A DNA stretch of 64,000 nucleotides from Camelus ferus (taxonomy: Eukaryota): the NCBI RefSeq assembly GCF_009834535.1, contig NC_045696.1, positions 3,412,001 to 3,476,000 on the forward strand. The letters run 5' to 3'. Made by a program: the position numbers and the translations under genes. The notes below the pieces were generated by a model, which saw only the letters and a program-made list of their open reading frames with translations, made no database searches and had not been told where the DNA came from. Of the stretch, positions 11,504-56,300 are shown one piece after another (the first letter of the stretch is position 1; each line of letters begins with the position of its first letter).

Positions 11504-11549
<46 letters not shown>

Positions 11550-16475: not shown

Positions 16476-16516
<41 letters not shown>

Positions 16517-19500
16517 AGGAGACTTGCCCGGGACACAAAAACATGCTGACCTCGTTTGCAAGACACACTTTTGGGGTGAATATCCTTAAAAGAACAGACT
16601 ACCCGACAGTATTCCGGACAAGGGGTCCTGAGACTCTTACCTTCACAGGGTCTTCCAGAATATTCTACGGAGAAGCCGGGGGTGCCTCCCCCGCAGCTGC
16701 AGGCGAAAGACCCCAGGGAGTTGCGGCAGGTGGAGCCCGGTCCGCAGTCATCCTCCCTCCTCTCGCACTCGTCGTAATCTGCAGGGCATTTAGAAAGCTA
16801 GTCCGGAGACCCTCCGCGGCCGCCCGACGGGGCAGGCGCGCCTCGGGAAGCGAAGTTCAGGTGCTCAAATGACAGCCGGACGGCCGCTCTGCAGGGTTCC
16901 GGAGACAGAGCGGCCCCCGACTTTCTGCCGGGGGTGGGGTGGGGCCGGGGGGTGGAGCAGCACCCCCTCAGCTCCCTGGAGGCCGGCAGACCAGAGGGGC
17001 CCCACCCAGCCCTGGGCTCGGGCAGAGGGACCCCAGCAGCCGCTCTCCTTTCAAATCTACACTTGGTCACTTATCTGACCGATAACGCAGGTTTACTGCA
17101 GGAAACAGATGAAACCCAGGGCAGCTCAGCCGAGAGCACACAGTTCCCCGGGAGGCCACCTCCCGGCGTGCGTGTTCGCACGTTGGCACACTTCCTTCCG
17201 GTCCTTTAACAGGCAGACTGGGGGCAGGTGCCGCTCAGCGGCAGGGCGCGCCGGGCACGCACAGGTCCTGGGCGCGAGACCCCGCGCCGCCACCGAAGGA
17301 AAACAAGAACAATTTGAATAAATAAGAGGCAGGCTGCAGCGCAGCTGAAACCGCGTTTTACACGCAAGCGGGAGCCCTGCTTTCTCCCCTTTTCCTTGGG
17401 TCAGGAATATTTTCTGTCTCAGCAAACCTCACTTTTAAGAATTGCCTGACGGCCCGTGGCATGAACACAGCATTTAGTTAATATCTTCCCTACACGGGAT
17501 TACGAGTCGTTTCCAGTCTTCTGCTTTTAAAGTAGCACTGACATGAATGTCCTCGTACATAAGCTATGGTCCAGACTGAGATCGGTTTCCTTAGGATGAA
17601 GTCCTAGACGCGCTATTATTCTAAAGCCAAAGTGGATGAACAGTTTAAAAGTTCCTGACACACACTGTCAAACTGGCTTCCAGGAAGTGCGAGCCAATCC
17701 CTGTCCCCCGAGGGTGGCCTGCGGGTGCTGGCTCCCTATGCCCCCACCAGGGTCACCGTCTTAATTATTATTATTGCTCCTGGATGGGCATGCCTTGATT
17801 CTCCTGCCTTTGTTAGCGGCGTGTTTCTTCTTTCATGGACTGTCTATCCGGGTCCTCTGTGCACGTGTCTATTGGGGTCCTAGTATTTTATCCTCAATGC
17901 CTGTGATCCCTCTATATTTAGGATGCAATTCTTCATCAGATTTTCGGAATGATTTTCTCTTTTGTTGCCTATGAGAGATGTAATTCATAGAGGCAAATAT
18001 TCCAGCCTTTTCTCTGCAGGCTTCACCCTTCTCATTCCAAAAATCAGAAAAATATTCATCTACATTGTCTTTGATTTTATTCATACATGTAACTATAAGC
18101 CTTTCCTCATTTATTCTCAGCTGTGATGTAAGCTAGAGACTGAATCATGTCCCTTCAAAACTTGTGTGTCGAAGCCCGGACTCCCAGTGTGAGTACATTT
18201 GGAGACGGGCCTGTTAGGAGATAATTAACGTTAAATGAGGTCATAAGGGAGGGGCCCCGACCCAAGAGGACTGACGTCCTTATAAGAAGAGATGCCAGAT
18301 CCCTCGCTGTCTACACACCCAGAGGAAAAGCCAGGAGAGGACACAGCAGAAAGGGGGCTGCCTACCTGCCAGGAGGGTCCCTCACCAGCATCACCAGGAC
18401 CCTGATCTTGGACTTAAAGCCTCTCAAACCATGAGAAAGTAAATGTCTGTCGTTGAAGCCGCTCAGTCCATGGTATTTTGTTGCAACAGCTCAAGCTGAC
18501 TAATACAACATGAGAAAAGACTCTAAATTGCCTCTTCTCCCTGCTTCTTTTTTCACTTGTTTTCACTAGGTCTCCTTGGAAACTGTGCCTGGGAGGAGGT
18601 CTGGCTGCGGAGACGGACATGTCTGCCCTCAACTCGCCCAGACGCTGCGGGGGAAGGAGGGGCAGGATGCAGCCGCTGTGGGGATCCTCGCAGGCTCCCC
18701 CAGAGAGGTTTCCAACTCTAAAAACTATTTTTGAAAGAACCACAGTAGCAATAAGGGAGCTGAGCGTCCCTTATTTTCACATTTTCTTCGAACGCAGGGG
18801 AAGCCCTTAAGAGGAAGAGCACCTTTTAGAAACAAAGCCAGTGGCTAAGATTTCACTCTCTCGTCAGAACCCAGTGAGTCTCTGTGGGGCCCAGCCTCCA
18901 CGTACCCCAGATGGAGGTGTCCCCTCCGACCACCTCCAGCAGAGACGTGTTCTGAAAGGCGGTGAGGAACGCAGCAGACACCTCCCGGACATCCACGTCT
19001 GCGACTGATCAGCAGGGTAAACTCCACCACGACACTGCCATTGGCGATGCGGGTCACCTCCACCCGCACCCCACCTGTGTCCAGGTGCTGACGCATGGAG
19101 GCTGGCAAGGAATCCCGCACCTTTAGAGAAACAGGGCTGGTGAGGAGAGCTGCCCGCGAGAGAGGAAACGGGGCACTTGTCCTGAGGGGGGCTCCTCCTG
19201 GGGTTCCGGCCAGCAGCCGGCTGGCCTCGGCAAAGAGGTCAAAGCCTCACGTCAGCTCTGGCCCCTGCCTGTCTGCTGAATCCCCAGGCCCAGCACAAAT
19301 GCAGGGGGTTCTGAGACACTGAGCCCCATTCCCCCCCAACCAGCTGATGGGCACGTACCCTGTGGGCTTGTAACTTGGGAGGGGGCTGAACGAATGATCA
19401 CAGGAAGGGACACCACCTTCCCCACTGCATTTTTTCTAGAACAGTCCTGTGAACCTCATGCTGCAGAACATCCCGCCTTCCCTTCTGCCTCCTGCCTTGC

Positions 19501-22500
19501 TGAGAACCGCTTCCCTGCGGACGTCCTAGGGGGACAGGTGGTTCTCACCTGTAAACGCCTTGTTTACTGTTCTACGTTTGGACAGAATCCTAATCACACA
19601 CTATATTATTCCATTCTCTCCCATCAGGGCCAAAATGCCCAGAAAGGCACCCGATCTTAGAATGAGCTGTAAGCAATCCACATAATGCGACGTGCTATGG
19701 AAGAGCCCCCCTGCACAGTTTGCCCTCACAGAGGAAACCTCGTCTTCATCTGACCCGCATGAGGTTCGAGGCCCAGGCGGATGGGTTTCCAGCCCTGGGA
19801 CAGCCAGCGTGAGCAAGGGTGTTGTTGCCCGTCGGAGGCTGCAGACGCCCGCGAGGCCCCAGAGCCGCCTGCAGCCACGCGGCCGCCATCATTATCCCCG
19901 GAATAGCTTGTCTTCTGTCTCCGTCTCTCTCTCTCTCTGGGGTTTCCAGAGTGGGATCTGTCACAGTCTGGGGTTAAAGTCATTTTTGTCTGCATTTCAA
20001 GCCAGTCTCAAAGCAAAGTTCCAGGCCCTTTGGTAGGAAGTGACAAAGAGCAAGGTGACACATTAACCCACAACCTCCCCGAATGTGTCTTAATGTCCTA
20101 CACACGTGTTAAGGTGCACAGTTGTTTGCTGTCCTGAAATTCCAGACAGATAAAAACTTTGGCCCCATGTAGGCAAAAGACGAAATGCTTTAAAAGGGCA
20201 AGATTAATCAAGGAACTGGGGTGGCAGGGACGCTGCCTCGTGTGATGCTAGAGACACGGGAACTGATTTCAGTGGTCGTTGCTTAATGTGACGTGTAACT
20301 GTGATTTACGCTAAAGAAGATGACGATACACGTGTGAATCGAGCCATCAGCAGCTCTTGAATCCACGCACTGGGCCAGGAGCCGGGACCTCAGAATAAAT
20401 AGAGCAGGAGCCCAGACCCCAGGGAGCCCGAGGGTACAGTTCCTGGAGGCAGCATGCTGGCTTTATCCAGGAGAAACGCCCGTGAGTGTGGACAGCCTCA
20501 CCCAACACTGCAGCCGCCAGCATCACCGACGCGCCATCATGCTACTCCGCCAGTAGGTGGCGCTGCCAAGCCCTCTCCAGCCCGTGTCCTAACCTCCCAG
20601 AACTTGGAAAAGCTAAAATGTAGAGATGTCGTCTGTGCAAACAAGAGCCCTAGATTAAGACAAGTGCATTCTCTATTCGCCAAAGGGCAACCTAACCACC
20701 AGCGAAAAGAATGCTGAGGCTGCTACCCTAACTGAATAGCAACAACGGACCTCCCCAAAGAGTGCCAGTGGGACGGCAGAGGGCACTGAAAGAGAGCAAG
20801 AAAAAGAATTTTTAAGGCAGGGATCATAGCAATGTTAGTCACAGTAGCCAGAAGGCGGAAGCCACCCGAATGTCCATCGAATGACTGGATAAACAGAACG
20901 TGGCCTGTCCGTGCAATGGAATCAAGCCCTAAAAGGGATGAAGTCCTGATACCGGGACGAGATGGATGAAGCTTGAGGACATCACACTCAGCGAGATAAG
21001 CCAGACTCAAAGGGGCCGAACTGTATGATTTCATTTCTATGAAGCATCCAGAATAGACAAACCCATAGAGGCAGAAAGCACATGCCTGGTTCCAGGGGTG
21101 CAGAGAAGGGGGGAGGGTGAGCGACTACTGATGAGTATGGGGTTTCTTTTCTGAGACGATGAAAATGTTCTGAAATTAGGTGGTGTTGAAGGTTGCACAA
21201 CTTTGTAAATACAGCCTGAACCACTGAATTGTGCACTTTAAAAGTGTGAGTTTTCACGGACATCAACAACAAACTATGGTTACAGAGGGGAAAGGGGGTG
21301 GGGGGGCTGCATTAGGAGTCTGGGATTAGCAGATACAAAGGACTGTATACAAACTAGATAAACAACAAGGTCCTGCTGCACAGCACAGGGGGCTGTATTC
21401 CGTATCCTGTAATAACCTGTAATGGAAAAGAGTCTGGAAAAGGACCTATATGAAGATGAGTAGCTGAATCACTGTGCTGTACACCAGAAACTAACACAAC
21501 ACAGGAAGCCAACTACACTTCAGTAATTTTTTTGAAGTGTGAGTTTTCTGGTGCGTGAAACAGATCTCAATGTTCAATTTCTTTCCTTTTAAGGCGGGGG
21601 CGGGGAGGCTTTCTGCTCCTCGGGACCCCACGTCAATAAAGAAGCCACCCTAAGCAGGAAGCGATGCGAGGCAAGGACACAGCAAGAGGAGGAGGTGTGT
21701 CTCCCTCCTGCTGCCGTGACTAATGGCAGATCCAGGACACACAGGCGCCACGCCAGAGCCAGAGGCGCTAGCTTCCTTCAGAAACGAGGAGCTTGCAGCA
21801 TCTTCAGGTCTGAGTCCTGGTTAGCTGCGACTAGGATGCTGCCACCTCCCTCATTCACGTCCCAGGAGAAAAGGAAGATGATTCCGCCAACGTACCGCCC
21901 TGAAAAGCAGCCGCAGGAAGGCCTGGTATTCCCCGCTGCTCACGTTGCGGAAGGATTCTGAATACCTGACGTTCGCTATTCTGACTTGTCCACTGAGCTT
22001 CTGGGCCGCTGCAGGACGGAGAACAAACATGTAACAGATTATCAGCTCTATCTTAAAAATAGTGTTTCTGTGTTGGCCAGGAGCAGCATCACACTGAGGC
22101 TGACCTGCACTCTGTAAAGAAGGAACGGCACCCGGGACACACAGACGCCGCCCACCAGACTCTAGGGGGTGGCAGGACAAAGCCTGGGCACAGAGGGAGA
22201 GCCTTCTGGAGGCCACGGAGCTCAGCCACTGCAGCCCTGTCCTGCCTGCCGGGGCGGTTACCTGTGCACGGGATGCCCACGTAACCCACCAGCCGGCCGG
22301 GGCAGCTCTGAGAGTGAAAGGAGGCCCTCTGTGGTGACGGCGCCAGGGCCACGGGCGTGCGCCGGCAGTGAGGGCCAGCACGGCGTAGGATCGCCTTGCC
22401 GAGTGCCTGCTCACGACAGACCGCCCCGGGGTCCTGCCGCAGCCGGCTCTCCTCCCCCGTAGCCCTGCCTCTCTGCAGGTAAGGGCAGCTCCTGCTTTCA

Positions 22501-25500
22501 CGCTGGTCTGTTCCATCTGAATCTTCCCCCTTCCAGTGGGGCTTCTGAGAGTTCGTGGTCTGGGAGCATCGCCCGGCCGCGTCCTGGCTTCCGGCGTGGC
22601 CGCCGTCTCCGGTCCCGCTCAGTGCCTCACCAGGGATTTGCGAAGCACCTGCCACGCGCAGGGCGTTCTGGGCAGCGCAGGAGGAGGACCAGGTGGTCCT
22701 GTCGGGGGCTGAGAGTCCCTCCCCCAGAAGCTTGCTGCCCAGACGTGAGACAAACCACAAAGCCGCCCCATTATGCATTCCTGGGTGAACCCCAACCCCA
22801 TGTCCTCAGGTTCATGGCTCTCACTGCGCCTGGGAGCCACCGGTCCAGACTCCAGCAACTAGTGTCTGACCTGACCTGAAACCCACCAGGTGCACAGGTG
22901 AGAGCAGATGTGGACCCGTCTCAGGCCAGGGTCACACGCTCACGGGCAGCTCCGCCCTGTAGGCGCGGGTGAGACCTTCAGAGGCCTGATCTGCACTGAA
23001 CGCCCAGCACCAGCTCCCAGACTCCTCCGGGGCTGCCCTGCCTGCCTGTCTGGCTAGCAGTGACCTCCCCTTCCCCAGCTCGCCACCAGCTTACGTGTGG
23101 CGTCGTCACCCACCTTCCCCGCTCTGACTTCCCAGTCCACGGCTAATTTGTACTTCAAAGCGTACAAACAAGAGCTCTAAACTTTCCCAGCTGCACCCTA
23201 ACAGGTCATCTTAGGCATCTCCCTGGGGTGTGCACCCCACCTTGGAGACCACCGCTATCAACTCTTGGACAGCTGCCCAAGCTCGGAGGACTTCTCTGCA
23301 ACATCAGGTCCACCCTGGCTGCTCAGCTAAGTCAGACATTCAGGAAAACACGTGGGTGACAGTTTCCCTGCCGTGCACCCGTGAGGACGCAGGTGAGCAT
23401 CTGTAACCTCTGCAGAGTCTGGAACGCTTTGCAACACAGCCTCATGGCCCACAGTCTGCCCAGCACCGGTCCCTGAAATGATCCACCTGCAGTGTGGCCT
23501 TTACACACCAGCTGAGCATACACTGAGCCCGATGTTCCGAGGCGGAGAAGGAAGCGGAAACCCAGACGCCCACGAAGAAGTCCAGCTCCTCTAAACACCC
23601 AACCACCGGGGCCCTTTCCTCCTCCCTTTGAGAATCAGTGGTGATGGCGCATCTGAAGCCCATTACCTGTCCTCACTCTCAGGTGGGCTCTGGAACTTTC
23701 TTCCCCACATGCTTTGGCCACGATCTCAACCAAGTGCAAGACGCCAGGCTCCAGGTCAGACAGAGTCAGACTTGCGTTCTGGGTCTCCAGGTGCACTGCA
23801 GGGCCCCGAGCAGAAATCAGGGTGAGCTGGAAAGTGCGGTGCAGGGTGAGATCTGCCGCCCACGCCACGTGGAAGCCTGTGCTGGTCACGTTGGAGACTG
23901 AGACTCTGCCGACGGGGACGGGAGCTGGAAAACAGAATATAAACGCTCTGATTAAAATAAATTCAAGGATCCATTCTGAGGACACAGGCAAAGAGAAGCC
24001 TCACCCCACTGCTCGGGGACACGAGTCCTCAGGGACGCCGACCCAAGGGGAGTCAAGTACCCTGGCTGCTGGCTGCACAGGCCGGTGCACAGTCCCTGAC
24101 TGCCTCCTGAGCCCTGGGCTCCCGGGGACGGCCCCCGCCCCTCAGTTTTGCCCCGTTTCCCAGCCTGAGGTTCCGGGACTTGGAGAAACCAAGTTTCCTT
24201 GAGCAGGTTCTGAGGGGCTCCTCCGGAGCAGTTGTTCCCCTCGAGCCCTGGGCAGAGTCGGGGGGAGTCAGCCAGGTGGCCATCTGGCTACAACCATTCC
24301 TACAGGGGAGCCGGGGTGGTGTACACAGGCTGAAGGGTTTAGTCTTGGATCTGGCACTGTTTAGCAGAGGAAATGCATCGATGGAGCTGCACTTAACAGT
24401 TGGTTCCATTTGGATGTAACCCAGGGTCAGGCTGGCTCAGTGCTCTCACACAAGGATGCCAGCACCGCCTTCTTGGCGGAGGCTGCACGGCCAGGCCCTT
24501 TCCTGCACAGAGGCTGCCTGTCTCCTGGGACATCACCCAGGGGTCTCGGTGATGGCTAAACACCTTGAAAGTAGTGAGTAATTTGGAACTGCTGGGGGCT
24601 GCATCAGGGTACGGGGTTGGCACTCCTGGGGGTCTATACCTGGATAGGGGGGCTATAGATGTTGGGGGCTGCACCAGGCTGGGGGTGCAGCACTGCTAGG
24701 GAGGTGCAGAAATGTTGGGGGCCCAACACTGCTGAGGGGCCACCTGCTCAATGCGCTTAATGCAACTCATGCCTGACTTCCTGCTCCAACCGCCGGCAAC
24801 CAGGGAGGTTTCGGAAGGGGGAGGACAGGGTTGGAGGGAAAGCGGGGAGACCCAGGTCCATCCTAACCAGACTGGACTCCGGCCGCTGCGGGCCGGGGCT
24901 GCTCCGCACTGGGTTTGCACAGCCATGAGGTGAGGGCTCCACTTCCGAGCTGCAGAGCAGCCTTCAACCAGACGACGGTGTGAGCTTTGCCAACGGAAAC
25001 ACACACCACGTGGCTGCACTGGTCCCTCTGGGACGCACATCCCAACCACTCACCGCAGGCCGGGATCTTCGGAGATGCAGGGGCTGGGGCCGAGGGCAGG
25101 TCTGGGGAGCCGGAGGGTCCAGGGTCTGAGTTCTGAGGCCACGTGGGGTCCAGAGGTGCTGCAAGTGTGTCCCTCGTGGGGAGGCTGGCATGCCACTCAA
25201 TGTGGCCCGTGGGTCCTTCAGTAGGAGTGGGCCAAAAGGGCAGCTCGGTAGTGGAGTTTGGAGGCAACCCCCCAAGGGGGTCCAGCAGGATGTCTGTGGC
25301 CCGGGGGAGGGGGCTGGGGGTTGGCCCAGGAGCCCTGGGGGCGAAGGCAGTGTTGGCCACCCTGCTGGCTGTCCACTGGCCCGTCTCCAGGCCTAGGGCC
25401 GTGCTGGCCTCCTCCTCCACGCCTTGCCCGGTGCTGTTACTACCGTAGCCGACCGTGCCACTGACCCCTCTTCTGGGTGGGGGCCCTGGGGTCCAGGCCT

Positions 25501-28500
25501 GGCCCACCGCAGGGGTGTCCCATGGGTGTGCGGGGCTGGGTGACCGGGCAGGGGTCTCCAGGCCAAGGGCTGTCGCTTCTGTGCTGGGAGCTGGGGCTGT
25601 TTCCCCTGTCACTGGAGTCAGCACAGCCCCCGTGGGGCTCACCACGTCACCTGCCAAGACACAGCCGCTCTCAGAAGGGGCATCTGGTCCACGTGAGCAA
25701 GAGCAACCCCCCCACAGGTGCACCCCGAGTGGGGACACAGCCTGTCCCAGCGGGCGATTAAGAACGTTTCACGGGGCCCGTGTTTGCAGTCTCCCAAGCG
25801 CTCTCTTTGGAAGGCCACGGGGCCTGTCCCTGTGGTCAGCAAGGGCGCTCGACCCTGAGAGCAGGGCCCCACTGGGGCGGCTGCAGACCCCAGACACCAA
25901 TGCAGGGCTCGGTTCTCGCAGGCCTCAGACTGATCCCTTGGGCCTTCGGGAAAGTTCCCCCAAGTGTGTGCTCCGTGTGGGGCCTGGTGCTGGCCACTCT
26001 CACCAGCTTGCTGGGCATGGCGTGGGTGGACGGGAGAAGGAGGCTGTGTGGCTCTGAGGAGGCAGGACAGTGCGCGTGGCAGGTAAGGACCGGAGGCTCT
26101 CTCCCCAGGGAATCACTCTGTGCTGCTGCTCCAGACAGAGGGCCTTAGCAGGCAGGGCAGGCAGGTGGCTGAGTGCCTCTGCTGCCCACTGTGTCCAGAG
26201 CAGACATTGCCAATCGATCACAGCATTTTAAGTCTGGATGGGACCTCCCTCTGTTTGTCAACTCAGCACTCCAGGTGGCCCCAGCCAGCCGGTCAGAACT
26301 GGCCCCCCAAAAAACTTGGGGCCGAGGCATGCCAAGACTGGGGCTCAGGCCCCATGTCAAGACCATCTCCATCTCAGCTGGGCTCTTCCACCCTCAGGCT
26401 CCAGCCACCCAGGAGGGACCTCGCTCCTGGATTGTGTCATGACTTTCTCAGACCCTTTCATTCATAAAAATAATGAAAAATCATACTGTAAAATACTGGT
26501 ATAAAGACTGGGTTCATCATTGATGTTTGCTGTCATTATATAAATTTCTTTCTTTTGATTTTAAGAGAAATGAAATCATTCTCGTGGACCCCTAACAGTA
26601 TGGTGGGCCCCAGGCACTGTGCCCACCCTGCTTGATGGAGAAGCTGTCCCTGCTCCACCCCAGGCCCCCGGGGAGGAGGCACAGCCCAGAGCGGGGGGTG
26701 GGGAGTGTGGGGCAGGGGGCGCACCCTCGCAGGCCCGGCCCGGTCTGGAGGGGTTGGCATCCCCGGCCGTCCGGCACCGGCAGGTGTACGAGCCCTCGAG
26801 GTTGATGCACTGGGCGGCCGGCGAGCAGTCATGCTCCAGGCTGTCCGCACACTCGTCCCAGTCTGCCGGGCGGGAAGGAGACAGGACACAGGCAGGTGAG
26901 AAGGTGGCCAGAAGCTGCCCAGAGAACAGACAGGCCACGGAGCGGAGTTCTACTGTCTTTGCAGCGAACGGCTGGGGGGACGCGGCGGGGCATCAGGGAG
27001 GCCCTTGGTGCCCAGCCCCCAGGGGGAGGCCCTGCCCAGAGCCCTCCCTGGAAGCCTCTATGTGAACCAAGCTGCCAGGCTGTGCACCCTCCTGCGCCCA
27101 CCTCCTCCGTGGCTGGCTGATCTGGGCAGGGGTTAAATGGGGCGCCGGTTCCTTTGGGGACATTAGCACCCACAAGGGTGAACACAGTCCCCTTTTGCTC
27201 ATTCTTTGCTCCCAGGGTGCTTTCACTTCTCTCTGATGTGCCAACATCCCCTAACACTTAGTGTCTCAAGAAAGAAACAGAAAAATCGCGGAGCCAGGAG
27301 GTGCCCAGTTAGTGGAACATGAACCTTCCGAGACACGGAGAGGAACGGCCCTGCAACTCCTCCCACCTGAGTCCGGGAGGCGACTGTCGGAGCCCGAGGG
27401 CCGTGCCCTGGGAAGCCAGAGCCTTCTGACTGGAGCAGGGAAGTTTGTGAAGGAAGCCCCCCTGCCTGTCAGCCCCCCAAAGCCCTCTCTCCCTTGCTCG
27501 ACCTCTCATCATGCAATCCAGCCCCCAGTGGCCAATCAGCAAGCAGCCAGGACCAGCTTTAGGCCACATGGAGGCAAAACTCACCAGGAGGACCATCCCT
27601 CCTCCTCCTCCCAGCCTCTCCTCTCCCACTTCTGCTCCCCCAGGTCACCACCACCCCCATCCCCGTCCCTGCCCTAGGAAGGAATCTGACCTCCAACCTG
27701 CAGGCTGCTTAATGGGGCTGGAGCCAGGCTGGCCAGACAGCAGGGCCCCTAGAAGAGCGGAGGCCCCGGTCGAGACCTGGGCTCAAACCGCAGAAACCCA
27801 GGAGGCCATCTTGGGGTGGTGACTCCCCTGGCCTTCGGTCCCCCAGCACACGGCTCGGGAGCAAGGCTGAGTAAGGTGCAGGCAGCTCCATCTGGTCTTG
27901 CAACAAAGCCCGAGGCCACACGGTTTTCTGATTCTGAAGGAAGAGGCAGGTCTGTGCACCGTGAGAGCTGCCAGGTGGCCTCTGCACCTCCTGGGCCATC
28001 AGACAAGGAAACAGGCAGGAGCCCGGTGCGGGTCTGGGACAGGATGTGGCCCACCTCCCGGAGGAGCGGGGCAGCCGTGGCAGAGCCGCACCTCCTGGCA
28101 CAGGTGAGACCTCAGAACGAGTTGTGGAGGACCCAGGACAGGCCGCGCCTTCCCTGCAAAGGCAGGCTCCTCGGGGGGCCCCAAGCTGTCTCTGAGGCCT
28201 GGGCGGCCTTCGGAGGTGAAGCCTGGCCAGAGCCCTCGGCCCTTGCTGGGGCCGGCGTCAGAGTCTCAAGGAGGATGATGGGCACAGAGAACCTGGTTCT
28301 AAGGGCGCCACCCACAGAAGCTGGACCAAAGGCAGTGCCACCCAATCTGGATTAAGAAAGGCCACACCAGCAGGCCAGGTGGACGGTGACAGCCCCGGGG
28401 CCAGGCTCCCCAGCTCACACCCCTTCTCCCGCCGCCCACAGAGACACAGAAAGGACCACTGCGTCTGAAGTGCTGTTGGGAGCCAGCGGCCGCGGGGAGC

Positions 28501-31500
28501 TTTGGGGAGCAGTTCGGCCTGTCCTGAGCCTGCCCCCCGCTGCTGTGGTGACCCAGGGAGCCTCACACAGAACGGGGCCGCGGTTAGAGCTTGTCTGGCT
28601 GGCGTCTGCGCAGACACAGAGGCACGAAGGGACCACAGAGTGGAGGCCCAGCCGGTCAGCGCGCTTACAGCCGATGAGCGGGGTGGCCCTTACAGAGCAG
28701 ATTTCAAGGAAGGGTAGAGGCAGGGGTTGGAGACCCAGGGAGAGTGACGGGGCGGGAGGAGGGAGAGGAGCCCCTGGAGGAGGAGGAACTGCCGTCAGAC
28801 GTGTGCTGGGCATCACGTCATTCGCCCCCGAGGTGGGCTGCGTCCTAACCTTCCTGCCTCCCGGATAAGCACATGGAGGCCCTTGTGCAGGGCCCAGGGT
28901 GAGCGAGCGTCAGAGCTGGGACCCCCGCCCGGCCCATGAAGTACCTGTCGAGTCAAGACTCCTGTCTTGGGGCAGCATGGATGGGACTGGACCCCGGGGT
29001 GCTGCCCGGCCTCAGGCCTCCAGCACAGGGCCCACCCCTCAGGGAAGAGCAGGACACGGGGCCACCCGGTGACCCCGGGTGCACTGACCTCCGGGAGAAG
29101 ATGGGTCAGGGCATCGTGACCCCCACGCTGCTAGGATACGTCGACCCGCGGGAGGCGAGAGCACCCAGCTAACCCAGAATGCTCGGGGTGCGACCGCACC
29201 GTTCCCATAGGGGCTGCGGAGGAGAGTTTTCTGTGCCGCGGTTTGTTGACTTTGAGCAGAAGGGCAACGGATGGGCTTATCCAGTCCCCAGGCTGCGGGG
29301 CTGGGGGCTCTTGGGGGCAGGTGCGGGGAGAACGGCTTCCCCACACTCGGGTCAGGCCTGCGCGGCCTCCCCAGGTGGGGGCGGCAGCCTGGGGGCTGCT
29401 CTCGGGCTCCTGTGTCAGAAGCCAGCGGGAACCGGGTCAGGGGACTCGGAGCGGGGCGGGGTTGCCGCCTCGTGGCTGGGCAAGAACAACTCCCCGGCCC
29501 AGGGAGGGCTCCCCAAGACGCCCCTCAGCTCCGAGATGTGAAGCAAACAGCCTCCTGCTTGTCAAGGGCACTGCGGTGACAGCCTGCCCAGGGCTCCCAA
29601 CTTCCCAGGGCGCCTCTAGAACTACATGGGGAGGCTTAAAACGATCTGCTGAGAAGCCTGGGATGTTAGCAACGCAAGGTACCCCTTCTTCTTTGTATAA
29701 GTTTGCTGAGGCTGCCATGACAAACTGTCACATGCTGTCAAGCTGGCTTAAAGCAACAGAATGCACTCTCTCCAGTTCTAGAGGTCAGAGTCCAAAATCA
29801 AACTGTCAGCAGGGCCCAGTGCCCTCTGGGGCTCTCAGGGGAGTCCTTCCTGCCTCTTCCAGCTTCTGGTGGCCCCTGGGCTTCCTTGGCTTGTGGCCGC
29901 ATGCCTCCAGCCTCTGCCTCCGTCTTCATGTGCCTCCTCCAGTGGCCCTGGGTCTCCTCCTTTTCTGTTCCTTCTAAGGACACTGTCACTGGATTTAGGG
30001 CCCACCCTGATCCAGGACGATTTCAGATCCTTACCTTAATTTCACCTGCAAAGACCTTTCTTCCAAGTACGGTCACATCTGAAGTTCTGAGTGCACTGTC
30101 TTTTGGGGCCACCACTCAGCATACTGCATCGTTTGACCTACGCCCAGGTGCACGGGGACCTGGCTGGGAAGCATCGCTGGAGGGCTGGGCTGGGCCACCT
30201 GAGGGCTGCTCAGCTCTGTCTCAGGTGGGCTCTGGGGGCGCACACCAAGGACACATCCACTTGGTGCCCGGTGCCTGCCTGGCTCTTAGCCCCTGAGCCC
30301 AGGCAGGCAGGGCCACCCAGGTGCAGAGGGCCACTCAGGGAGACCCCAGGCTACGCAGGCAGGTGCTTCCCAGGTGTGACTGACTTCAGGTGTGACTTTC
30401 CCACGGCCTTCCCTGGGTTGGGTTGGGGCGACACACAACAGAGCTCAAAGGGCACTGCAGGGCTCACTCTGGGACCCAGCTCCACTGCGGGGTCAGAGGG
30501 ACGCCCATCCCACAGACTGGGCCCCAAACAGGCTCTCTGACGTAGGGACCGTGGTGCCCTCACTGCGCGCAGGAACTGCATCCCGGCGTATGACGGCAAA
30601 GCCTTCCCGACATGACAGCACACCGCCTCTGTCTCTGTTTCTGTCTCTCACCTCCCCTCGTCCCTTCTGTTCCTCCCACATCTCTCTCTGTCTCTCGGTG
30701 TCTCCGTCTCTGTCTTATCTCTGACCGTCTCCTCCATCTCTCTCTCTCTCTGTCCCCTCCCCACTCTTCTGCTGACCTGTGACTTCCTGCCTCAAGGCAA
30801 CTCCAAGTAGAATTACAGAACGTTCGGTCTCCTGAAGTAGATCCATGTGTCAGTGCGAGGTCCAGCGGCCAGGCGGTGCTTGGACTTGGACGCAGACACA
30901 GTGAGCTCCCCATCTTCCTGCCCCTTGGGGACCCCCCAGCCCGGTTCCCTCCTCGGTTCTGGGCCCACGGCCCCAGAAGCATCATCCAAGGGAATAAGCT
31001 TCCCCGGGCTCCACGGGGTCGCTTCTGCCACCAGGAACCAGGAGGTGCGGGGCACAGGCGGGCTCACTGGCAGGGGCTGTGGCCGGAGGGCCCCCGTGGA
31101 GGAACCCAGGGGCAGGGCTCAGGGTTCATTTTCTTTAACTACCTTTCAGAATAAAGTGAACATTGAGCAGAAACAACACTGTCTGGACTCGAGGGCATTG
31201 CGGTGGCGCCCAGGTGAGGGGACGAGGACCCACCTTGCACACGTGTCCCCCGCGGGTCGATCCGGAACAGGCCGCTTGCCCACAGTGGCGGAAGCATGGG
31301 GGCCAGCGTGGACACATCCACTGGGAACTCGGGGTCCCACGCCGTGAGTCTGAGCCTCACGACCACGCTTCCGGCCTGGAGGGACACGATCTGTACCCTC
31401 AGCTTCCCTCTTCTGTACAGGTCGGAAACCGCGGGCGGGAAGGAGTTTTCAACCTGGCCCAGAAGAGGCAACAGACGCTCAGACGGAGCAGACTCTCCCA

Positions 31501-38339: not shown

Positions 38340-38377
<38 letters not shown>

Positions 38378-44300: not shown

Positions 44301-47300
44301 TCATTAACCTCCAAGCGTGCACCACACAAGTTGAGGGCGTGGACTGGGCCTCTGCCCGGAGGGGCCTCTTGATGCCCTGCCTTAGATGGCCCGTGCAGCC
44401 CTCCGGCCCCCTTCCCGGAGCAGCCGGCCACGTCTCAGGGCACAGCCTCCCAGCTGCCACCCGTGCTCGGGGGCTGCTGCTGGAGCGAATCACTCTGGGG
44501 CTGAAATGATGGGGCCCAGACATCCACCCCAAGCATCAGCCCCGCGGACAGCAGTGCTCTGGGCGGAGGCGGAGAACAGAGCAGCCGCCGACGTGCAGGG
44601 GGGCCTGGCCTCGCCGCGGGAGCAGCCTCGCAGAGCACCAGCTCAGGACAGGCAGCCAGGCCGACTCACGACCAAGGGAGAGTGATGCTCGGCAAGGCCA
44701 CATCACGACTTTATCTAAGCCAGATGGGCAGAGGGCCACCGCGGCCCCACGAGGTACCAGCCCCCTTTTAGCCACAACGAGTGACTATTGGTTCGTAACC
44801 AATCACAGCTCACCTTCATGCTGCCCCTCCCGTGGGTGAGAGTTATCCCAGGTACCCAGTCGCAGAATCGCCTCCTCTTTCCGACAGCAGCCAACCCAGA
44901 ACCCCACTCCCCCACCCAGCCCGCAACCATCCAATCCAAGCCCATATCCTGTAACGGGTTCTCTAGACCCTCCCACAGAGATGCCCACGGTGCCCGCACG
45001 TGCCATCTCTCTCGCCACCTCATGTGTAACCGTGTTCACCTATAGGGGCGTCCCCATCTCTGGGTGGAGGACCAGTCAGAACAGACAGGGCGGGCACTTT
45101 GCTGACCGGCACAGTCTCGGTTTGGTTTACATTTGGGGAGTCTGAAAGGAGCTAATGCCTTCCCTGGAGCTATCCCCGGGCCCCAGACCCTGGCACCCTC
45201 ATGCGTGACTTCAGTGTCACAGGAGGCCCGGCCCTAGGCAGAGCAGCCGCCCTTCCAGGGCTGCGGCGGGAAAGAAAGTTCTACTGGGGCCCAGCCTGTC
45301 TGCTCACACACACTGTCCACAGCTACCTTCATGCCACGTGGCCCCCAGCCAAAAACATTCACTGTCTGGCCTTTTTCAGAAAGTCCGCAGACCCCTGACA
45401 TAGACTAAAACAAATAAACACAAAAGGACGAGGTAATTTTCTCTAGAAATGCATCCATATGCGTCACCAAACGCAGCTTTGTGCAATTCGGCTTTGAGAG
45501 CCTCCTAGATCCAAGGGTGTCCTTGGCTGAGGGAAGGAAAGAGGCGAGAGGGAACTTTGGGAACCCAAGAACCAAGGAAGCGAGTTATTCGGGGGCTTTT
45601 CCGGGATCTGTTCTCCAGCCCCATCTGGACGGAAGAAGCAGCCTGGGCGTGAGAGGCAGCAGGGGAGACGCAGGGAGGGAAGGGAAAAGCAGCGTCAGGG
45701 CAGGACCAGTTCTCAAAACCTGGGCTGCAGAACCTGGAGTTTACCTTTGGGCCCAGATGAGCTAAAAAGGAGCAGAATGCCCCCCATGCCCCCCTCCCCC
45801 AACTCCCCCCCCCCGACCCGCTGGAGGCCGCCTCCGCTCCTGCGGCCCCGCCCCACCCACCTTGCACCTGGACAGCCATCACTTCGTAGACGCGCTGCAC
45901 CATGCCGTCCAGGGCTGAGGACACGCGGGCCTGCCGGCGCCGGCCGCGGCAAGCCCAGCAGCAGCCAGGACACCGTGGTCGACGTGGCCCCGCCGGCCGA
46001 GCGCAGGTGGTGGACCGTGGTGTCCAGTGGCTGCAGGGCACCCGGTGACCTGTGAAACCAGCCAGAGCGTCACGCGGTGGAAGGGCGCCCCCATCGGACG
46101 GACAGGGAGATGGCAGCCCAGAGATGTTAAAATTAACACACACACACACACACACACCCCTTTCTCCTGTGCAGGGGGGGAAAAATCCCTACAATATTTT
46201 TATTTCTCTAATCATTCTGCAAACCAGGGTGTTACAGATTGAATGGCAACACCAGTTGTTACGGACTGAATGGCGTCCCCCTCCCTAGCAAAAATCCCCG
46301 ATTCAGAGTCCTAACCCCCCCGGGAACCTCAGAATGTGCCCTTGTTTGGAGAGACGGCCGTGGCAAATGTAATTAGTTAAGATGAGCTCATTAGGGTGGG
46401 CCTGTGTCCAGTATGACTGGTGCCCTTACACAAGAAAGTTGGACACAGACACTGGCAGAAGGAAGTGAGGGGAGGACACAGGGAGACGCCAAGGACAGGC
46501 CTGGGGGGGACCTCCGTCTGTGTGCTTTGTTACGGCCGCCCAGGGAGAGACATTGGTCAACCCCAGGACACCCCAGTCCCCACCCTAGCAGCTGATGACG
46601 GCATCGGGACGGAATTAGGGACTAGACTTCAAGCTCACGTGGTGCACATCTGACATTTTCTGAAGTTTAATGACCCCTTTCTCATCTCACATGAATTCTT
46701 TTTACTCCAGCCTAATACCTCGAAATCTCAAGATAGTTTTTGCCTTGGGAAGCCAGGCAAAGTGGCATGGCCACTCAGGCACAGAACATCACCGGAGGGG
46801 ACTTTAACAACAAACCCCTAAGCCTCCAGGAAGGCCTGTGGTGGCGGCTGGGCACTGGGGTCCCTGCTCCCCTCGGCAGACCTGGAACCCTTCACGGGGG
46901 CGGGCGGAACAGAAGGCCAACGCTAGCCTCGTGCAAATCCCTCAGTCAGGGGGCAGCACCTGCTGCAGTCAGGAGCCCGTGAGGACAGGCCTCTCCTGCA
47001 GGGAGGGACAAAACCTACCACCTGAGGAGACAACGGGTGACACGGGGCAGCAATATTCAAATAACAACAGCCGCAGCAGCTCAGAACCGATATGCAGCAG
47101 GATCCTTTTAGGCTCCTTACATGTACTGTTTAAACCCCACAGCCACTGCTCAGGTGAGACTCTGCTCATTCCTATTTCCTGGAGGAGGCATTGAAGGCAC
47201 AGAGAGGTTAAGTAACTTGCTCAAGGTCACACAGCTGATGAGTGGCAGCGTGAGGATTTGAATCAAGGTAGTCTCATTCCAGAGCCACATCCTTACTGGC

Positions 47301-50300
47301 CAAGCAGGCAACCCCAACCCTCCAACGAGCTAAGGAAAGACAGAAATCCCTTCCCACCGGGGCAATTACGAGGCTTTCGGGTCACAGGGACATTTGGGAA
47401 CATCTCTCAAACCGTTTGACTGGACAGCCCACAGCAAGGTGAGAGGCGGGCCATCTGCTCTCACCACGACATGTGGGACACATCTATGGGAACCAACGGT
47501 CAGGCGGGACCAGCCACATGGTGTGTGGGGTCTTCTGAGTGTGGGGTGACTGTGCAGGCCGCTCGACCTTGAAGCTGGCCCTGAGGCCAGACCACCACTC
47601 TGGGAAGGCACCGTGTGGTGAAGACAAGCCGGGCCTGCCCACGGCTGGGTTGCCAGGACCAGGGTGCACCCGGCGTGTGACAGCCCTCCTGGTTGGAAGT
47701 CACCAAGGCACAAGCTGTGTCTCCAGCAGGGGCTCTCCACCCGGAGCGGTGCTGCCTCTTGGGGGACAGTTCTGGTTGCCACGGCTGCACACGTTTCTGG
47801 CTTCTTGTGCACAGAGGCCAGGCATGCTGCGGAACCCTGTGGGGACAGGCAGCCCCACGACACAGAGCCATCCAGCCCCAAACGTCAGTGGTGCCGAGGT
47901 GGAGGAGCCCGGTCCAGAGGGCCCAGCCCGGCACCTTCCAGGACATTCCCTCGCGCGGGAGCTAGACCTCGGGATCTGCGAGGGAGGTGCGCGAGGCACG
48001 GCTCCGGGGCCTAGGCCGTCTGCACCGGGGCACCTTTGTTTAAGCCGCAGACCGCGAGGAGTGGGGGCTCCGTGCTCCGCAGCGCGGTGGGGCAGGGCCT
48101 GCACGCTGTGTACCTCAAAACACGCCAAACCGCACGCTTCCAAGGCTGCATTTTACCGCACGGATACCCACCCCTTCAGAGTGGCTTTCAGCTGAGACTT
48201 CTCACTTGGTCAGAGTCAGTCGTTCGGGGATCGCTCGTGGAACCCCTCCCCAAACCCCAGTTCCCACCTGTGTCTCCCGTGCAGCCCGCAGGCTCCCTGC
48301 CCCACCTACCATGGAGTGCAGGAGCCGCATGTGATCCCGGAGCCCGGGGTCCACCTGCCGGAGCTCCTTGAAGTCCATCTTCACCAGGACGGTCACGTTG
48401 TACCAGAAACCTGCCAGGGTCCCCTCCGGAGCTGCACGAGGACACATCGCTGAGCCCCAGGCCAGGACAGCGCGGGACGCCCCCCCACCCCCTCCTCTTA
48501 CGTATAATCCTGTATACACTGTATATTGTTGTACACAGTGTGCCTTAGGTAACACTGCGTGCCATTGATACTACGCACACTGTGACGCGTACAGTACGAG
48601 TACCGTTGTACATTGTCTGTGTTATAATATCGCATAAATATTATAATACACTGCTTTACATTATTTGTACTATCACTTCATACTGCGCTAATAAGGCACA
48701 CACTACACTAATACACAACATGTAACAGATATTGTATATTGTAAGGTTTTTTGTATCTATCTCCCCAGCTCTGAACCTTGACGAGCGCTTTCTCCAGGGG
48801 GCGGGCACTGAGGGCCAGGCTGCCCACCTGCCGGACGGGGGCCACGGGGAGGACCTCGGGGCCCCATGGGGCTTCTCCAGCAGACAGCCTTACCCCTTCC
48901 CCCTCTGACACAGCTCATCTTCCAGGAAGCTCCGCCGGGAGCTCGGGGGGCTTTGCCAGGCAAACTTGGGAAACTGGGGTCACTGCTCTTCCTGGAACGC
49001 CCTGCCTCCTCAGGGCACCTGCGAGCCCGCGGCCCACCCTGAGGGGCCAGTGGCCGGTTTGGATGAGTACAGCGGGCCTGGGCACAGGCTTCCCGTAAAA
49101 CCCGAGCCGCTGCTTCTGGAAACTCACCCCCCATCACCCCATCGCCCAGTGCCTGGGCCCCCAGCCCCCGCTCCACTCCCTAACTGGAGACCTCCTCTGC
49201 TCAGGCGCCAGCCCCACCTCGGGGAGCAGGAGCCACACAGCGCAGGCCCCCCGGCCAGGGGCAGCACTTCTGAAGGCCGGGACAGTCGGTGTCCAGGGCA
49301 CACAGCGAGGTGGACGCTTCCGGCCCCACCGTCGGGCAGGTCCCAGGTCTGGATGCAAACTCTGCCGATCGATTCAGGGCTGGGGGAACAAGCGATTAGC
49401 AGTTAGTGACGCTGGCAACAGAGCCCCCGATGGGCCGTGCAGGTGCTGCGTCTGGGTGCCTCCTGGCACGGGAACCCGTCCGCAGCTCCCAGGTCCACAG
49501 TGCGGCCCGCTCCCGGGCCGTGTCCGGGCCTGGCGGCACCTCACCACGTCCTACGGAGCAGCTGCTGAGGGCCGGGGCTCTGAGTCTAATGTAGCCTGAC
49601 TGTCCTGGAAGGAAGGCAGCCTCAACTGGGGGCCCAGGTGTCCCCCTTCCTCTAGGCCTCAGGGGTCCAGACACAGGAGCCTCCACCACCCCCATAGAGG
49701 CCCCCTTGCTGCTCTGTGTCCTGACAGCTCCCTCCCTCACTCACTTGTTCAGTATTTACTGAGCCATATGCCAGACATGGTACAAGGTGCCCGGGACCCA
49801 GCAATCGGCCAGAGGCAAATTCCCTGCCTCAGGACACAGATTCCAGGGGACAGAGGTCAATACACAAACAGACCTATGGAAGTTCAGTTGGAGGATTGCT
49901 GCGGGGAAGAAAACAGGGCCCGGGCAGCCGGGCAGGGAAGGCGGCCCTGGTGAGTCTGCCGGACACTCGGTGGCTGACGGCCCGGGAGAGCCTGCAGGTC
50001 TGCACGTGCCCAGCAGTGGGGCTCAGGGCAGTGAGGGATGGTCGGAAGCTGGGAAGCTGAGAAGCTGGGAGCAGCGGGCTGAGGGCAGCAGGGAGAGAGG
50101 TGCCGGGAGGGTGAGACCCCAGCATCAGCGTGTGTGCTCACAACCTTCCTGCCATCCATCCTGAGACGAGGGCTCCATGCCAGCTTGGGTGCCCCTCAAA
50201 CCCGTCTGGTTCCCACCCAGATCCATTTAAAGCTCTGTGTCCTACATGACTTTGAGAGGTGCAGTTCCAGGCCCCTCAAAGTCCAGGAAAGTCAAAAGAG

Positions 50301-53300
50301 GCTGCTGACAACCACACTCTGGAAAAGTGCCCACAGGAGCTGGAAGCATCAGCCTCCTGGGAGGACTTGAGGGGTCGCCAGGTAGAAGAGAATCCCTGAG
50401 GGGCTGCAGTCCCAGGGACAAACCTTTGGGGTCCCCCAGGGTCTCTGCAGGATGCTTCACAGCCAGACCTGCTGGGAACACTTCACCAAGGGCGCCTGCG
50501 TCAGCCAAGGATAAGAAGAGAAAGACGAAGTGGCTGAAACACACATGGAACGGCCCCGTGACCACTCTCCTCCTGGGACCCATGCTGCCGGCTCGCTGTC
50601 TGTTCACACTGCTGAGCCTGGACTTGGAGGTCACTCTCAAGGGCATTCTCCTTTCCATGCCGTCCCTGGCTCCCTCTTCACTTCCCAGTCATCCCGATGG
50701 CGATTCCAACGTCTAAAGTCCTGGAGACGTGGCCATGCAGGGACTGGCTTTGGGGGCACAAAGCATAGGCGTGCAGTGCAGCCAGAGAGGCCGTGTGAGT
50801 TATTTGTCTTCAAATCAAAAATATTTCAACCCAGAGGTTTATCTAAATGAGAGGAAAATACAGGCCCCCAGGAAAAACTGACTTTCAAAAATGATTGCCT
50901 GATCACAGCAGAAGGGTTTCGAGTTAAAGTTCGTCTTAATTTGGATGCAGCTGGGAATCTCCCTGCGTCCGTCAGGGCTGGCGGCTTACGGAGAGCAGCC
51001 AGCAGTTCCAACTTGGTACAAAGTCAAAAACCTGCTTCTCCTTCCACACAGTGACACAGGGCGGCCCCGGGCCCGGCAACCCCAGGTGAGTCACAGCTCA
51101 GTGAGACAAGGCGGAGGCTTCTGTCTGAGCCACGGCCCTGAAGGCTCCCTAGGCCTGGGGAATCTGATCTCTAGGATGATTATTCCCACCTCTGACTCCT
51201 TCCTCAGGGTCCTCTCCCCCAAAGGGGCCCTGTCGTCAGCCTGGGAGGAGATGGGAAGTTTGGGGTAGGCTCCTGGTGCAGGGGCATCCTGGGCTTGCCA
51301 CGGAGAAGGGTCTGCGGAGGAGACGGGCCAGGGAGGGAGGAACCAGGGGCATCACTGCAGGTGCCGAGCGTTTACCGAGATGCTCAGATCCGCCCTGAGG
51401 AATCCATCCTGAGTAGCCATTCCAGCTTGTGCACGACTGTGTTTGCGCCATATGATACTCACCGCAGCCTTATTTACAATCGTGAAAAGTTGGAAGCAAC
51501 TAGATGTTAAGTGGAGGGAGATTGCTTAATGCTGACACATCCATGTGAGGTAATGCCTTGTGGCCATTAAATCATGCTGAGAAACACTATTTATTGACAT
51601 GAATCCAGATAAATTGCCAAGTGGTAAAAGTGCACTGCAAACCATCGTGAGCAGGCTGACCGAGCATTTGTAAAGCGTCTGGCCTAAGAGACTAGAAGAA
51701 AATGTTAACGGTGGTTGTTCTTGGTGGCGGGATCGGGGAGGACTTAGCACGCAGTCTCCCTTTGTTCTTTTTGCTCTTTCCAAATTTTCTACATGGCTGG
51801 TGCATTCATTTTTGTAATTGTACTTTAAAAGAGATTTAAATGCGATCTCGTACAACTTACTACATTCCAATGTTGGACTTAAAAAAATGGAAAAAGGCAT
51901 CTAGACCGAAAGAAATAGCACATGTTCTCAGAAGGCCCTTCCCTTGTTAGACAACGGTCGTCGAGTGGGAGGAGGAAGAAGAAAGCAAGGCTGAGGTTTT
52001 GCTGCCACCGAGGATGAGACGTCTGAGCTGAAGCTGCCAAGACACAAGTCTCCCCTTATCCGGTCGACCAGGAGGTCCTGCCCCGAGGACAGAGTGCCTG
52101 CCCCCATCCCGGCCCCCGTCCCATCACGCATCAGAATCCCAGGCTCTTCCCGCGGCTAACAGCTCCAGGCCTCTGCCTCCTTCTGTGCAGAGCCCCCGCA
52201 GGTCTCCGTGGGCCACTTGCAGAGACTTCTCACTTCCTGTTCCAGAAGGCCAGGCTGTCATGAAGCATCTCTGAACCAAGTCTGATCAAACATTCAGGCT
52301 TTGACTGGGGGCCAGGGGGGCGTGGAGAAAGCTGAGCTGCCAGTGTCCCTGGTGTAACTGCTTCTAACCCAGGCACTCTGCAGCTGCCCACGTGGCGTCC
52401 CTGAACACAAAGCCCCGCCAGGGGTCACAGCCCCCACCAGGGGTCTCAGCCCAGCACCCCCAGCCACCGCAGGGCCAGCCAGGACCTTCCTGAGTCCACT
52501 ATGCTCTGTGCCCAACCTCCTTCATCACCATTCCCTTCTCGCCCCCACCCCCTGACAGTCCCCGTCCTCAGATGCCACAGTCTGAATCCGACTGGGATCA
52601 GGGAGACCCAGGCCCAAGTCTGTGGGATCTTGATCAAGTCACCCGCCTCCCCCCGGTCTGTGTCCCTGGCACTCGCTCAAAGCCCCCTTTCCTCTCTCTT
52701 CTCCTTCCTCCTGGGCTCCTGTCTCTCCTGTCCACACCGCCTCTAGAGTGACCCTTCTAAGGCCTGGCGTTGGGGTGGGGACACCCCACCACCCCAACTC
52801 AGCCCCCTCTGCAGGGCCTGGGGGCTTCAGGGTGAGTCCTCCCTCCCTCATTCCCAACGCGCCCCCCACCCAGTCCCCACCCTCCCTACACCTGCCGCAC
52901 CAAGACCTGTGGTTCCCCAGAGCAGACTGCCCACGGGACTCTTTCTAGAACGTTCTGGCCCTCTCCTGCCTGGTGAGTTCCTATTTAAAGGTGCTGACAC
53001 TTTAAACGTGGAGCTGAGTCACCCGAGAGGCTGGTTCCTGGCGGCTGGTTTGTTGGGAGAGAGATGAGCAGCAGGTGCCTCCCTCCTTCTCTCTGGGGGG
53101 ATCTCACTTGTGAGGGCAGCAGGACCGCACCTGCACAGAAAGGTGACCTCGGGGCTCAGCCTCTTCCGGGGGCGCCTCTGGACGTGTGACTTCACCGGCC
53201 CCATGACAGCCGTCAGGTGGGGACAGTGTGGTCTTCGCAGGTGAAGGTGGATGGGGCAGGGCGGACGCCTCATTCTACCTGACACTCCCACCCAAGGGGA

Positions 53301-56300
53301 CCCGAGGCCTCTCCGACAGGAGACCCCGACCCTCAGGTGCAGGGTGCTCCCAGGCCAAGGGCAGCTCCCTTTGTGCACGTGGCCCTCCGAGACAAGGACA
53401 GCAGGGAGGGAACTGCAGTCAGCACAGAAAGGGACGCCTTAGACCCAGCACCTGGACAGGACCACCAGGGGACAGAGCCCCAGTGGGAATTCACCACAGG
53501 CTCCCCCTGCAGACCTGAGGCCAGCTGGCCCCTCCTTGTTTCTATGTGTGGTGGCGGCATTGGTGACAGCGGTGTCATTGTACCACTCCCGGAAGAGGTG
53601 TACCCCTGTGAACTGCTCAACCCTGAGCTGTCTGGTCATCTCTGAGCCTGGTCCTCTGCATGGGGTCAGGGCAAAGTGTCACCATCCTTGTCCTCTGTGA
53701 GATGGCTTTGGAGGACTAAGGGCAGCACGATCAGGACGGCTCGGCGTGCCCAGCCCACGCAGCCTTCTGCAGGGTCCGGCTGACCCAAGGCTCCGCATCC
53801 GGGAGCCCCTGGTGCTAGGGAGCTGCCCCCCCGGGGTGCAGCACCCACGCCCTAGCCCGCAGCTGTCCCGGGGCCCCTCCCTGCACCCCCTGAGCCGGTG
53901 CTTTCTGGAGTCTGAAGGCAGCAGCCCTCACGTCTCAGAGTGTCACCCCCGACACCCCACGAAGCCACACCCTTCTCACTTCGCCTACACCATGGGGGTG
54001 GGGGCTGACTGTTCAGAGACTCATCTTAGCTCTAGTATTGACTCAGATTTAACAATCACCACCTCCCACACACATTCACACACACATGCCTGCATCCTTT
54101 CCCCTGGAAGAAGTCTTCTGGAAAGTTCCCTTTGTGTCAGGGACTGAGCCCTGAACCCCCTCCCAGCTCAGTCCACTTGGCCTCAGACACTGTCCGGCAG
54201 AGCCGCACTGGTGCTGGTAGCCACCCCGGGCATCTTCTGAACCACACTGAGGAAGTAAGGGGGCTTGGGGGCTTGGGGTCTTCTGGGCCGTGGAGGGGGG
54301 CACGGAGGGCACCCTTTCCAACTCTTCTACAGACTGGAGCTCAGACCAGGATTTCATAGCTTTTTGAATAAAAGCGCTGGCTGTCAGTATAGCAGAGATG
54401 ACAATGCTGGTTCCCAAACTCAGCTGCAGGTTACAACTGCTTGCAGAGCCTAAAAAACCTGTCCCCAAGCTCTGCCCCAGACCAAGTCCATCCCAGCCTC
54501 CGAGAGGGGACCCAGGGATCAGAGTTTTGAAAGCTGCCCTGGGTACACTGTCACTGTGGAGTCAGGTCCGAGAGCCACCGCCCATCACAGAGGTTCTTAG
54601 AGTGTGGCCTCGGGCGGCGGCATCAGCACAACCTGGGGCCCTGTCCTCCACCCCTGACCCCCTGGATCTGAAATCTGGGTGGGGCCAGTCACCTGTGCTT
54701 GGACCAGGCCTCTGGATGGCCCTGGTGCACACACAAGGCTGAAACTAGGGTTCCAGAAGGATCTGCTGGTTCTGGGCTAAGGGATGTGGACAGAGACAGA
54801 GACCATCCCGAGAGTGGGCGGGGCCCGGGGGGGGGCGCCGCCCCTGGACTCACGCAGGACGCAGTAGAGGCCCAGCTGCTCGTAGCCCTCGCAGCAGTCG
54901 GTCACATTCCTCCACTCGGGAACCTCCACCGCCTGGAAGCGGGTCCTGTAGACCGTCTTGGGGCAGCGCCGCCAGGGGACCCAGCGGCCGCAGGGCACGT
55001 GGGTCAGGAGGGACGTCTGCACAGCCTCCACGCTCGGCACGCTCCGGGCCACACTCTGGTTGCATAGCTGGTAACTCAGCAAAGAGAGGACCTTTTTCTA
55101 CCGGAGGAGGTGGAGGGGGTTGATGGAGGAAACAAGAAGTGGAAAATGGCACAGTCAAATCCATCCGAGGGGCTCTCTGTCAGAGCCGGTGAGACAGGAC
55201 CCCCAGCGTGGCGGACCCTCGGAATCTGCCTCCCAGCCCAGACCCGAGAAGGAGACGCCAAAGAGCGGACTTGAAGGACTAAAGCAGGAGCGGGCCCCCG
55301 TGGGCCGAGAAAACCTCCTCTACAGGGCGGGGGACACCGCCCCCGCCTGGCCCCTGCCCAGGGGCCTGCCATGACACGGAAGGGAACACGGAGGAACCGA
55401 GCATCTGGGGCTGCCGTCCGAGGTTCTGTGCTCTCTGACTCCACGGGCTGGGGATCCTTGTGCGCACCTTTTCTCTGCTTGAGCCCCAGGGTCGTCCCAG
55501 GTGAGCTGAACACACACTATTCCCGTAATGAATGCATGACATGCTGGGCACGCTGGCACTGGCACCCTCTTTTGGAACGAGACACAAGGTGGATGATCAT
55601 GTCCAGCCCATGTGAGAAGTTCATAGGTGGGAAAGGTCAGTCCACCATCACTCACCAGCAGCAGGACGACATGAGCTGGCCTGATCCGGCCCTCTGCGTC
55701 TCCCACCTGGAGCCTGGTTCCTGTGCACAGACACCTGTGGCCATTCATTAGCACTGTCACTTGGTTCTCAAGGCCCCATGGCACACACTGCCTTCACCAG
55801 CCCTACGCCCCTTTGTCATGGACCATCTCCCACGGGGTCCTCAGGTGTCCCATCTGCCCAAGGAGCCTCTGTGGCCTCCTGAAACAGGGACTGTTATGGG
55901 CTGAAATGTGTCCCACCCCTCATTCATGTCCTGAATCCCAGGACCTCAGCGTGTGACTGTATTTGGAAACAGGGCCTTTGCAGATATAATTAGTTTAGCT
56001 GAAGGGATACTGGAGGAGGGTGGCCCTGGTCCAATATGACTGGTGTCCTTATAAAAGGAGACATTTAGACCCGGAGACAGGAATGCACCCAGACGGCCAC
56101 GCTAAGATGGAGGCAGAAATTAGGGAGATGCTTCTATAAGTCAAGGAGTGACAAAGATTTTCAGCAAACCCCCAGAAGTTGGAGGAGAGCCTGGGACAGA
56201 TTCTCCATCACAGCCTCAGGAGTAGCCAACCCTGCCCGCACCTTGACCTCAGACTTCTGGTCTCCAGACTGTGAAGAAATAAATCCCTTCCTGTTAATCC

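Follow-up and report, generated by a model that had tools for sequence, protein, structure and literature searches.

Four extra bases in the assembled UMODL1 gene of the wild Bactrian camel are very probably consensus errors rather than a gene loss

UMODL1 of the wild Bactrian camel (Camelus ferus) is very probably an ordinary and intact gene, with the four extra bases that break its reading frame best explained, on comparison with other camelid sequences, as consensus errors of the assembly. The window that we analyzed comprises 64,000 nucleotides of contig NC_045696.1 (GCF_009834535.1), and the four +1 bases are present in it, a confirmation that applies to the assembly text alone. For most of the four sites we lean towards a mechanism in which the two alleles of a heterozygous SNP were placed next to each other in the consensus, and we hold this with more conviction for site 4. 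The loss of UMODL1 in the wild camel is very probably not real. The coordinates of the gene, its relevant exons, and the four sites are collected in Table 1.

Table 1. UMODL1 features in window coordinates; the range of each site covers the positions whose removal gives the camelid-type peptide.
Feature	Position	Strand	Description
UMODL1 (olfactorin)	2993..58638	-	ATG at 58638, stop at 2993; long exon-11 form, 1362 aa
Exon 1	58563..58638	-	76 nt, N-terminal leader, intact
Exon 2	54854..55097	-	244 nt as written, 243 needed
Exon 5	45861..46049	-	189 nt as written, 187 needed
Exon 14	18906..19120	-	215 nt as written, 214 needed
Site 1	55088..55090	-	extra base, Gly28 third position; dropping T or C gives Gly (C/T pair)
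Site 2	46040..46045	-	extra base, Thr203/Gly204; can be repaired silently in three different ways (C/G or G/T pair)
Site 3	45930..45932	-	extra base, Ala240 third position; dropping A or G gives Ala (A/G pair)
Site 4	19005..19007	-	extra base, codon 914 first base; dropping A gives Val, dropping G gives Ile
First stop as written	16748..16750	-	TGA, codon 958, exon 15

The gene was mapped with camelid proteins to 21 coding exons on the minus strand. Its orthology was evident from full-length colinear identity with named UMODL1 proteins (approximately 79% to hippopotamus), and the exon 2 peptide matched Camelus ferus uromodulin-like 1 at 100%. An earlier note on this DNA had reported exons 2, 5, and 14 as too long, and the same lengths were obtained on re-measurement, with an exon total of 4093 nt as written (1 mod 3). 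Its claim of canonical splicing was reproduced, as all 40 splice sites carried AG/GT. The four places that it gave for the extra bases were recovered as well, although the interval 46040-46041 was too narrow for site 2, where the range is 46045-46040. Dropping one base at each of the four places left 1362 codons with no internal stop, in agreement with the claimed absence of nonsense codons. Alternative splice sites were considered as a cause and rejected, as the extra bases fall within conserved peptide and every boundary is canonical.

It was noted that the first three +1 bases total +3, a return of frame that had been overlooked, and in the text as written the frame is regained beyond 45930. 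The shifted stretch spans codons 28-240 and contains no stop; the correct frame holds over codons 241-913, and a stop first appears in exon 15. The as-written product would be without its WAP and ZP domains, as well as the hydrophobic segment at the C terminus. A message with such an early stop is an expected target of nonsense-mediated decay.

The frame breaks are already known to the public annotation, which corrects them. The RefSeq protein XP_032316810.1 (uromodulin-like 1 of Camelus ferus, 1362 aa) carries the label 'LOW QUALITY PROTEIN', which the excerpted text of 10.1101/2021.07.16.452324 gives for RefSeq models in which an indel or a stop has been corrected. This record represents the same gene at the same length as in the window, and is identical to the four-base-removed translation save for 2 of 1362 residues, Val28 and Ala203, both at repair sites. 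Among the full-length orthologue records, Gly28 was found in 108 of 110 and Thr203 in 101 of 110, and the window permits silent repairs that yield both of these residues; the public repaired protein has two wrong residues. A Pfam search, run on this near-identical record in place of the window's repaired translation, found WAP, EGF_CA, FN3, SEA, ZP-N, and ZP-C, and the actual protein would be an olfactorin of the usual WAP-EGF-FN3-SEA-ZP layout.

The comparison with other records of the same and sister species that had been proposed earlier was carried out with proteins, and all 10 members of the 90% protein cluster were examined. Unflagged 1362-aa records that are colinear and in frame at all four sites were found in C. 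bactrianus (XP_074206270.1; 11 of 1362 residues differ from the repaired window), C. dromedarius (XP_064332250.1; 14 residues differ), and alpaca (Vicugna pacos; XP_072825744.1). With intact frames in the other camelids, a real loss could concern C. ferus alone. Within this species, the older record EPY86163.1 is in frame through exon 14 (residue 914 is Ile, and 66 of 66 six-residue words are matched), and site 4 is therefore not fixed in C. ferus. The records of this species thus do not share a disabling change at site 4, and sites 1-3 lie outside the coverage of EPY86163.1 and its companion EPY86164.1. As judged from these proteins, sites 1-3 stay unrefuted within C. ferus, where the in-frame record covers site 4 only.

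The older C. ferus models take unusual routes through the gene. EPY86164.1 avoids the start of exon 2 via an intronic pseudo-exon (55724-55656) and omits exon 5, and the EPY86163.1/EPY86164.1 pair also omits the intact exons 3, 10, 12, 20, and 21. Exon 5 is absent from all four older camel models, including those of Bactrian and dromedary, and the newer records of these two include it. Exon skipping in the old camel models was thus rejected as a sign of real frameshifts, being unspecific since intact exons are skipped too. The same models bear on a mixed case, in which a single frameshift would be a real allele, with site 1 in exon 2 as the likeliest candidate, beside three artefacts. EPY86164.1 does steer around just that portion of exon 2 in which site 1 lies, but with five intact exons also skipped, and with two silent repairs available at site 1 as at other sites, we consider such a mixture very improbable. 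Residue 373 is Gln in the window but Arg in the older C. ferus record, which could be an error of the older record, and it differs at 3 of 63 codons of an intronic stretch, which may likewise be its own errors. The sequences offer hints of variation at this locus within C. ferus.

Short camel proteins from public contigs were also searched. For exon 5, the one match among 130 candidates was a deer and none was camel; for exon 2, there were 33 matches among 111, of which the camel ones were only P0003 and EPY86164.1. In a set of 24 read runs, the share of sampled words from 45700-55300 was 0.91-0.95 in 9 runs of one organism, 0.59-0.87 in 9 runs of a second organism, and 0.07-0.08 in 2 RNA runs, these shares being blind to single bases and given no weight here.

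A real and recent inactivation would require that wild camels have a UMODL1 null haplotype, either fixed or still segregating, with four true insertions. The assembly text is broken at four places, and none of sites 1-3 is read through by the older C. ferus model; the route of EPY86164.1 is also the gene-finder behavior expected at a real frameshift, although it is unspecific. In addition, the window has Thr1250 against Ile in 105 of 110 full-length records, and the wild population is described as small and inbred (PMC13107281). Against this stand the frames of every other camelid and the absence of site 4 from the other C. ferus record. The mix of damage typical of a pseudogene was sought in the 21 exons, and 0 deletions, 0 stops, and 0 splice losses were found. 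Derived changes were polarised with dromedary and alpaca, a polarisation blurred by polymorphism, and gave 4 amino-acid changes in the window (P132L, A155V, R373Q, I1250T) and 7 in the intact domestic Bactrian. The surplus of amino-acid change that was sought as a mark of loss was consequently not found (4 vs 7).

The four missense changes imply approximately 6 substitutions, with an upper bound of 15. Human indels are given as 16 times rarer than SNPs outside hotspots and about 1 in 8 overall (PMC3638132), with a ratio of deletions to insertions of 2.74:1 (PMC4448676). With these excerpted human rates applied to camel, 0.10-0.50 insertions would be expected under neutral decay, with P = 4e-6 to 2e-3 for at least four insertions and P = 1.5e-4 to 1.5e-2 for at least three when the first hit is free. 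That all four hits should be insertions has a probability of 0.005 under the same human deletion bias, and non-duplicating insertions make up approximately 2.5% of human indels in the available text of PMC3638132. The gap between the expected and the four observed insertions is large despite the borrowed rates. Four derived changes are far too few, which makes four insertions by neutral decay implausible, and we regard a real inactivation as highly unlikely. The preference of the earlier note for consensus error over decay is thus borne out by the in-frame orthologues of three camelid species and the in-frame exon 14 of a second C. ferus record, together with the missing surplus of amino-acid change and the very low odds of neutral decay. 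Its alternative, that this lineage has lost an olfactory ZP protein, is unsupported by the orthologue, substitution, and indel-odds comparisons.

We then assessed how consensus errors of this kind could arise. At 4 of 4 sites, a camel-type residue results whichever of two neighboring bases is deleted, and simulated +1 errors did likewise at a proportion of 0.43 (4029 duplications) to 0.48 (16116 random bases). The joint probability of four such two-allele-like sites is 0.03-0.05, of modest strength as the test was picked after the sites were seen. A transition pair was included at 3 of 4 sites vs 0.23 expected per site. At sites 3 and 4, one of the two alleles makes a CpG, which is a frequent location of real SNPs.

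Site 4 was distinguished by its recorded alleles. With the repaired model XP_032316810.1 excluded from the tally, codon 914 reads Ile in five records (P0121, P0123, P0124, P0125, P0127), including the older C. ferus EPY86163.1 and C. bactrianus, and Val in five (P0129, P0122, P0128, P0004, P0126), including dromedary and alpaca; both residues were found within C. bactrianus. Among random +1 errors, 9 of 4029 or 61 of 16116 spelled a recorded residue difference, which corresponds to P ~0.01 for at least one of four sites, or 0.05-0.07 with alpaca residues allowed. Both alleles are on record at site 4, and at sites 1-3 the alternatives are silent, variants to which protein records are blind. Site 4 therefore appears to be the stronger case for a two-allele origin than sites 1-3. 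Among the wild camels of Mongolia, 10-22% of animals are reported to carry domestic-camel introgression, with heterozygosity reduced overall (PMC13107281).

Under this mechanism, the sequenced animal would have been heterozygous for a SNP at each place, and a haploid consensus over the two haplotypes may have put the alleles in adjacent columns and written both. Polishing limited to homozygous disagreements would then have left such sites untouched. Artefacts could also have come from common noise in the reads, such as miscounted runs or stray bases, that was left unpolished in a GC-rich region, with no heterozygosity involved, which we take to be a possible but distinctly less likely source. 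Sites 1-3 fit this equally well, as each can be read as one duplicated base within a short C or G run, and approximately 43% of the simulated duplications looked SNP-like by chance. The extra base of site 4, however, is no duplication of an adjoining base and spells the recorded Ile/Val difference. Homozygous errors are, moreover, what short-read polishing clears; in a human example, frameshifted transcripts numbered 434 of 2153 before such polishing and 8 after (PMC7466960). Alleles written side by side remain our favored mechanism for most sites. If it is true, heterozygous SNPs would lie at many of the +1 frameshifts of this assembly, and if the breaks are artefacts of either kind, they are a warning that gene-loss calls from this assembly need reads.

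Toothed whales are not known to have a sense of smell, and the full-length UMODL1 records found for them (P0009, P0025, P0026, P0038) bear no low-quality label in their listed names. As these whales keep a full-length UMODL1, a loss in camel is not expected on olfactory grounds. Olfactorin is described as guiding GnRH neurons and olfactory axons; GnRH neurons are drawn to it in vitro, and olfactory and GnRH axons are disturbed in zebrafish when it is knocked down (PMC8874799). Expression of UMODL1 in olfactory tissue, and also in T cells and the ovary (PMC3542605), is known from mouse (PMC8874799, PMC3542605). No report of UMODL1 gene loss was found in the literature on UMODL1 with pseudogene or camel, as judged by titles and abstract openings. 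Were the breaks real, three +1 bases would restore the frame after 213 shifted codons with no stop, and the fourth would remove the ZP domain and the membrane anchor. Such a null haplotype, peculiar to the endangered wild camel and lacking in alpaca and the domestic camels, would amount to a natural knockout of a protein of the ovary and of GnRH-neuron guidance, and the fertility of the small wild population could suffer; we give this outcome very little credence.

The errors that we propose resemble those known from other assemblies. Frameshifting short indels in the consensus are described as the commonest error before polishing in noisy long-read assemblies (PMC8081667). An explicit account of both SNP alleles written side by side was not found in the excerpts of the assembly-error literature, including PMC5632298 and PMC5889714. 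The available text on long-read frameshifts is likewise without side-by-side SNP alleles, unlike the mechanism that we infer for UMODL1. The outcome is nonetheless the same, as frame-breaking short indels that result in 'low quality' RefSeq models are described there too (Rhie et al. 2021, PMC8081667; Merfin preprint, 10.1101/2021.07.16.452324), and in the KNL1 example from that literature the error consists of one extra base, as it does here.

It was noted that the first three extra bases in the UMODL1 coding sequence, which affect codons 28-240, produce no early stop, because the +1 frame has its first stop no earlier than codon 270. This frame contains 27 stops over the 1362 codons.

An ATG within intron 1 lies in the same frame as exon 2, and comparison of translations found the stretch that it opens to be identical to residues 1-25 of the C. 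bactrianus UMODL1 isoform X1 (P0125). This ATG is predicted to be an alternative start that lacks the usual leader.

Coordinates of UMODL1-associated and other features in the window
Feature	Position	Strand	Remark
Stretch opened by the ATG in UMODL1 intron 1	55164-55090	minus	100% match to P0125
Intronic UMODL1 stretch, pseudo-exon of older C. ferus model	22472-22284	minus	
UMODL1 exon 19, with codon 1250	6538-6379	minus	
Old repeat, dispersed copies	8017-8695, 11156-11771, 21253-21524, 34990-35301, 36066-36240, 42896-44011		67-76% alike
Open frame	32739-33296	plus	

At codon 1250, in the ZP-C domain, the window encodes Thr compared to Ile in 105 of the 110 full-length records, and Thr was also present in the older C. 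ferus record. From the aligned proteins, this looks like a substitution of the wild camel. In the intronic stretch that serves the older C. ferus model as a pseudo-exon, 3 of the 63 codons do not agree with the window, reflecting either diverged haplotypes or errors. Among the 120 matches listed, the only further LOW QUALITY label in the names shown belonged to Vulpes lagopus (P0017).

The six old-repeat copies were 67-76% alike, and the end of the plus-strand open frame may resemble a LINE-1 ORF2 fragment.
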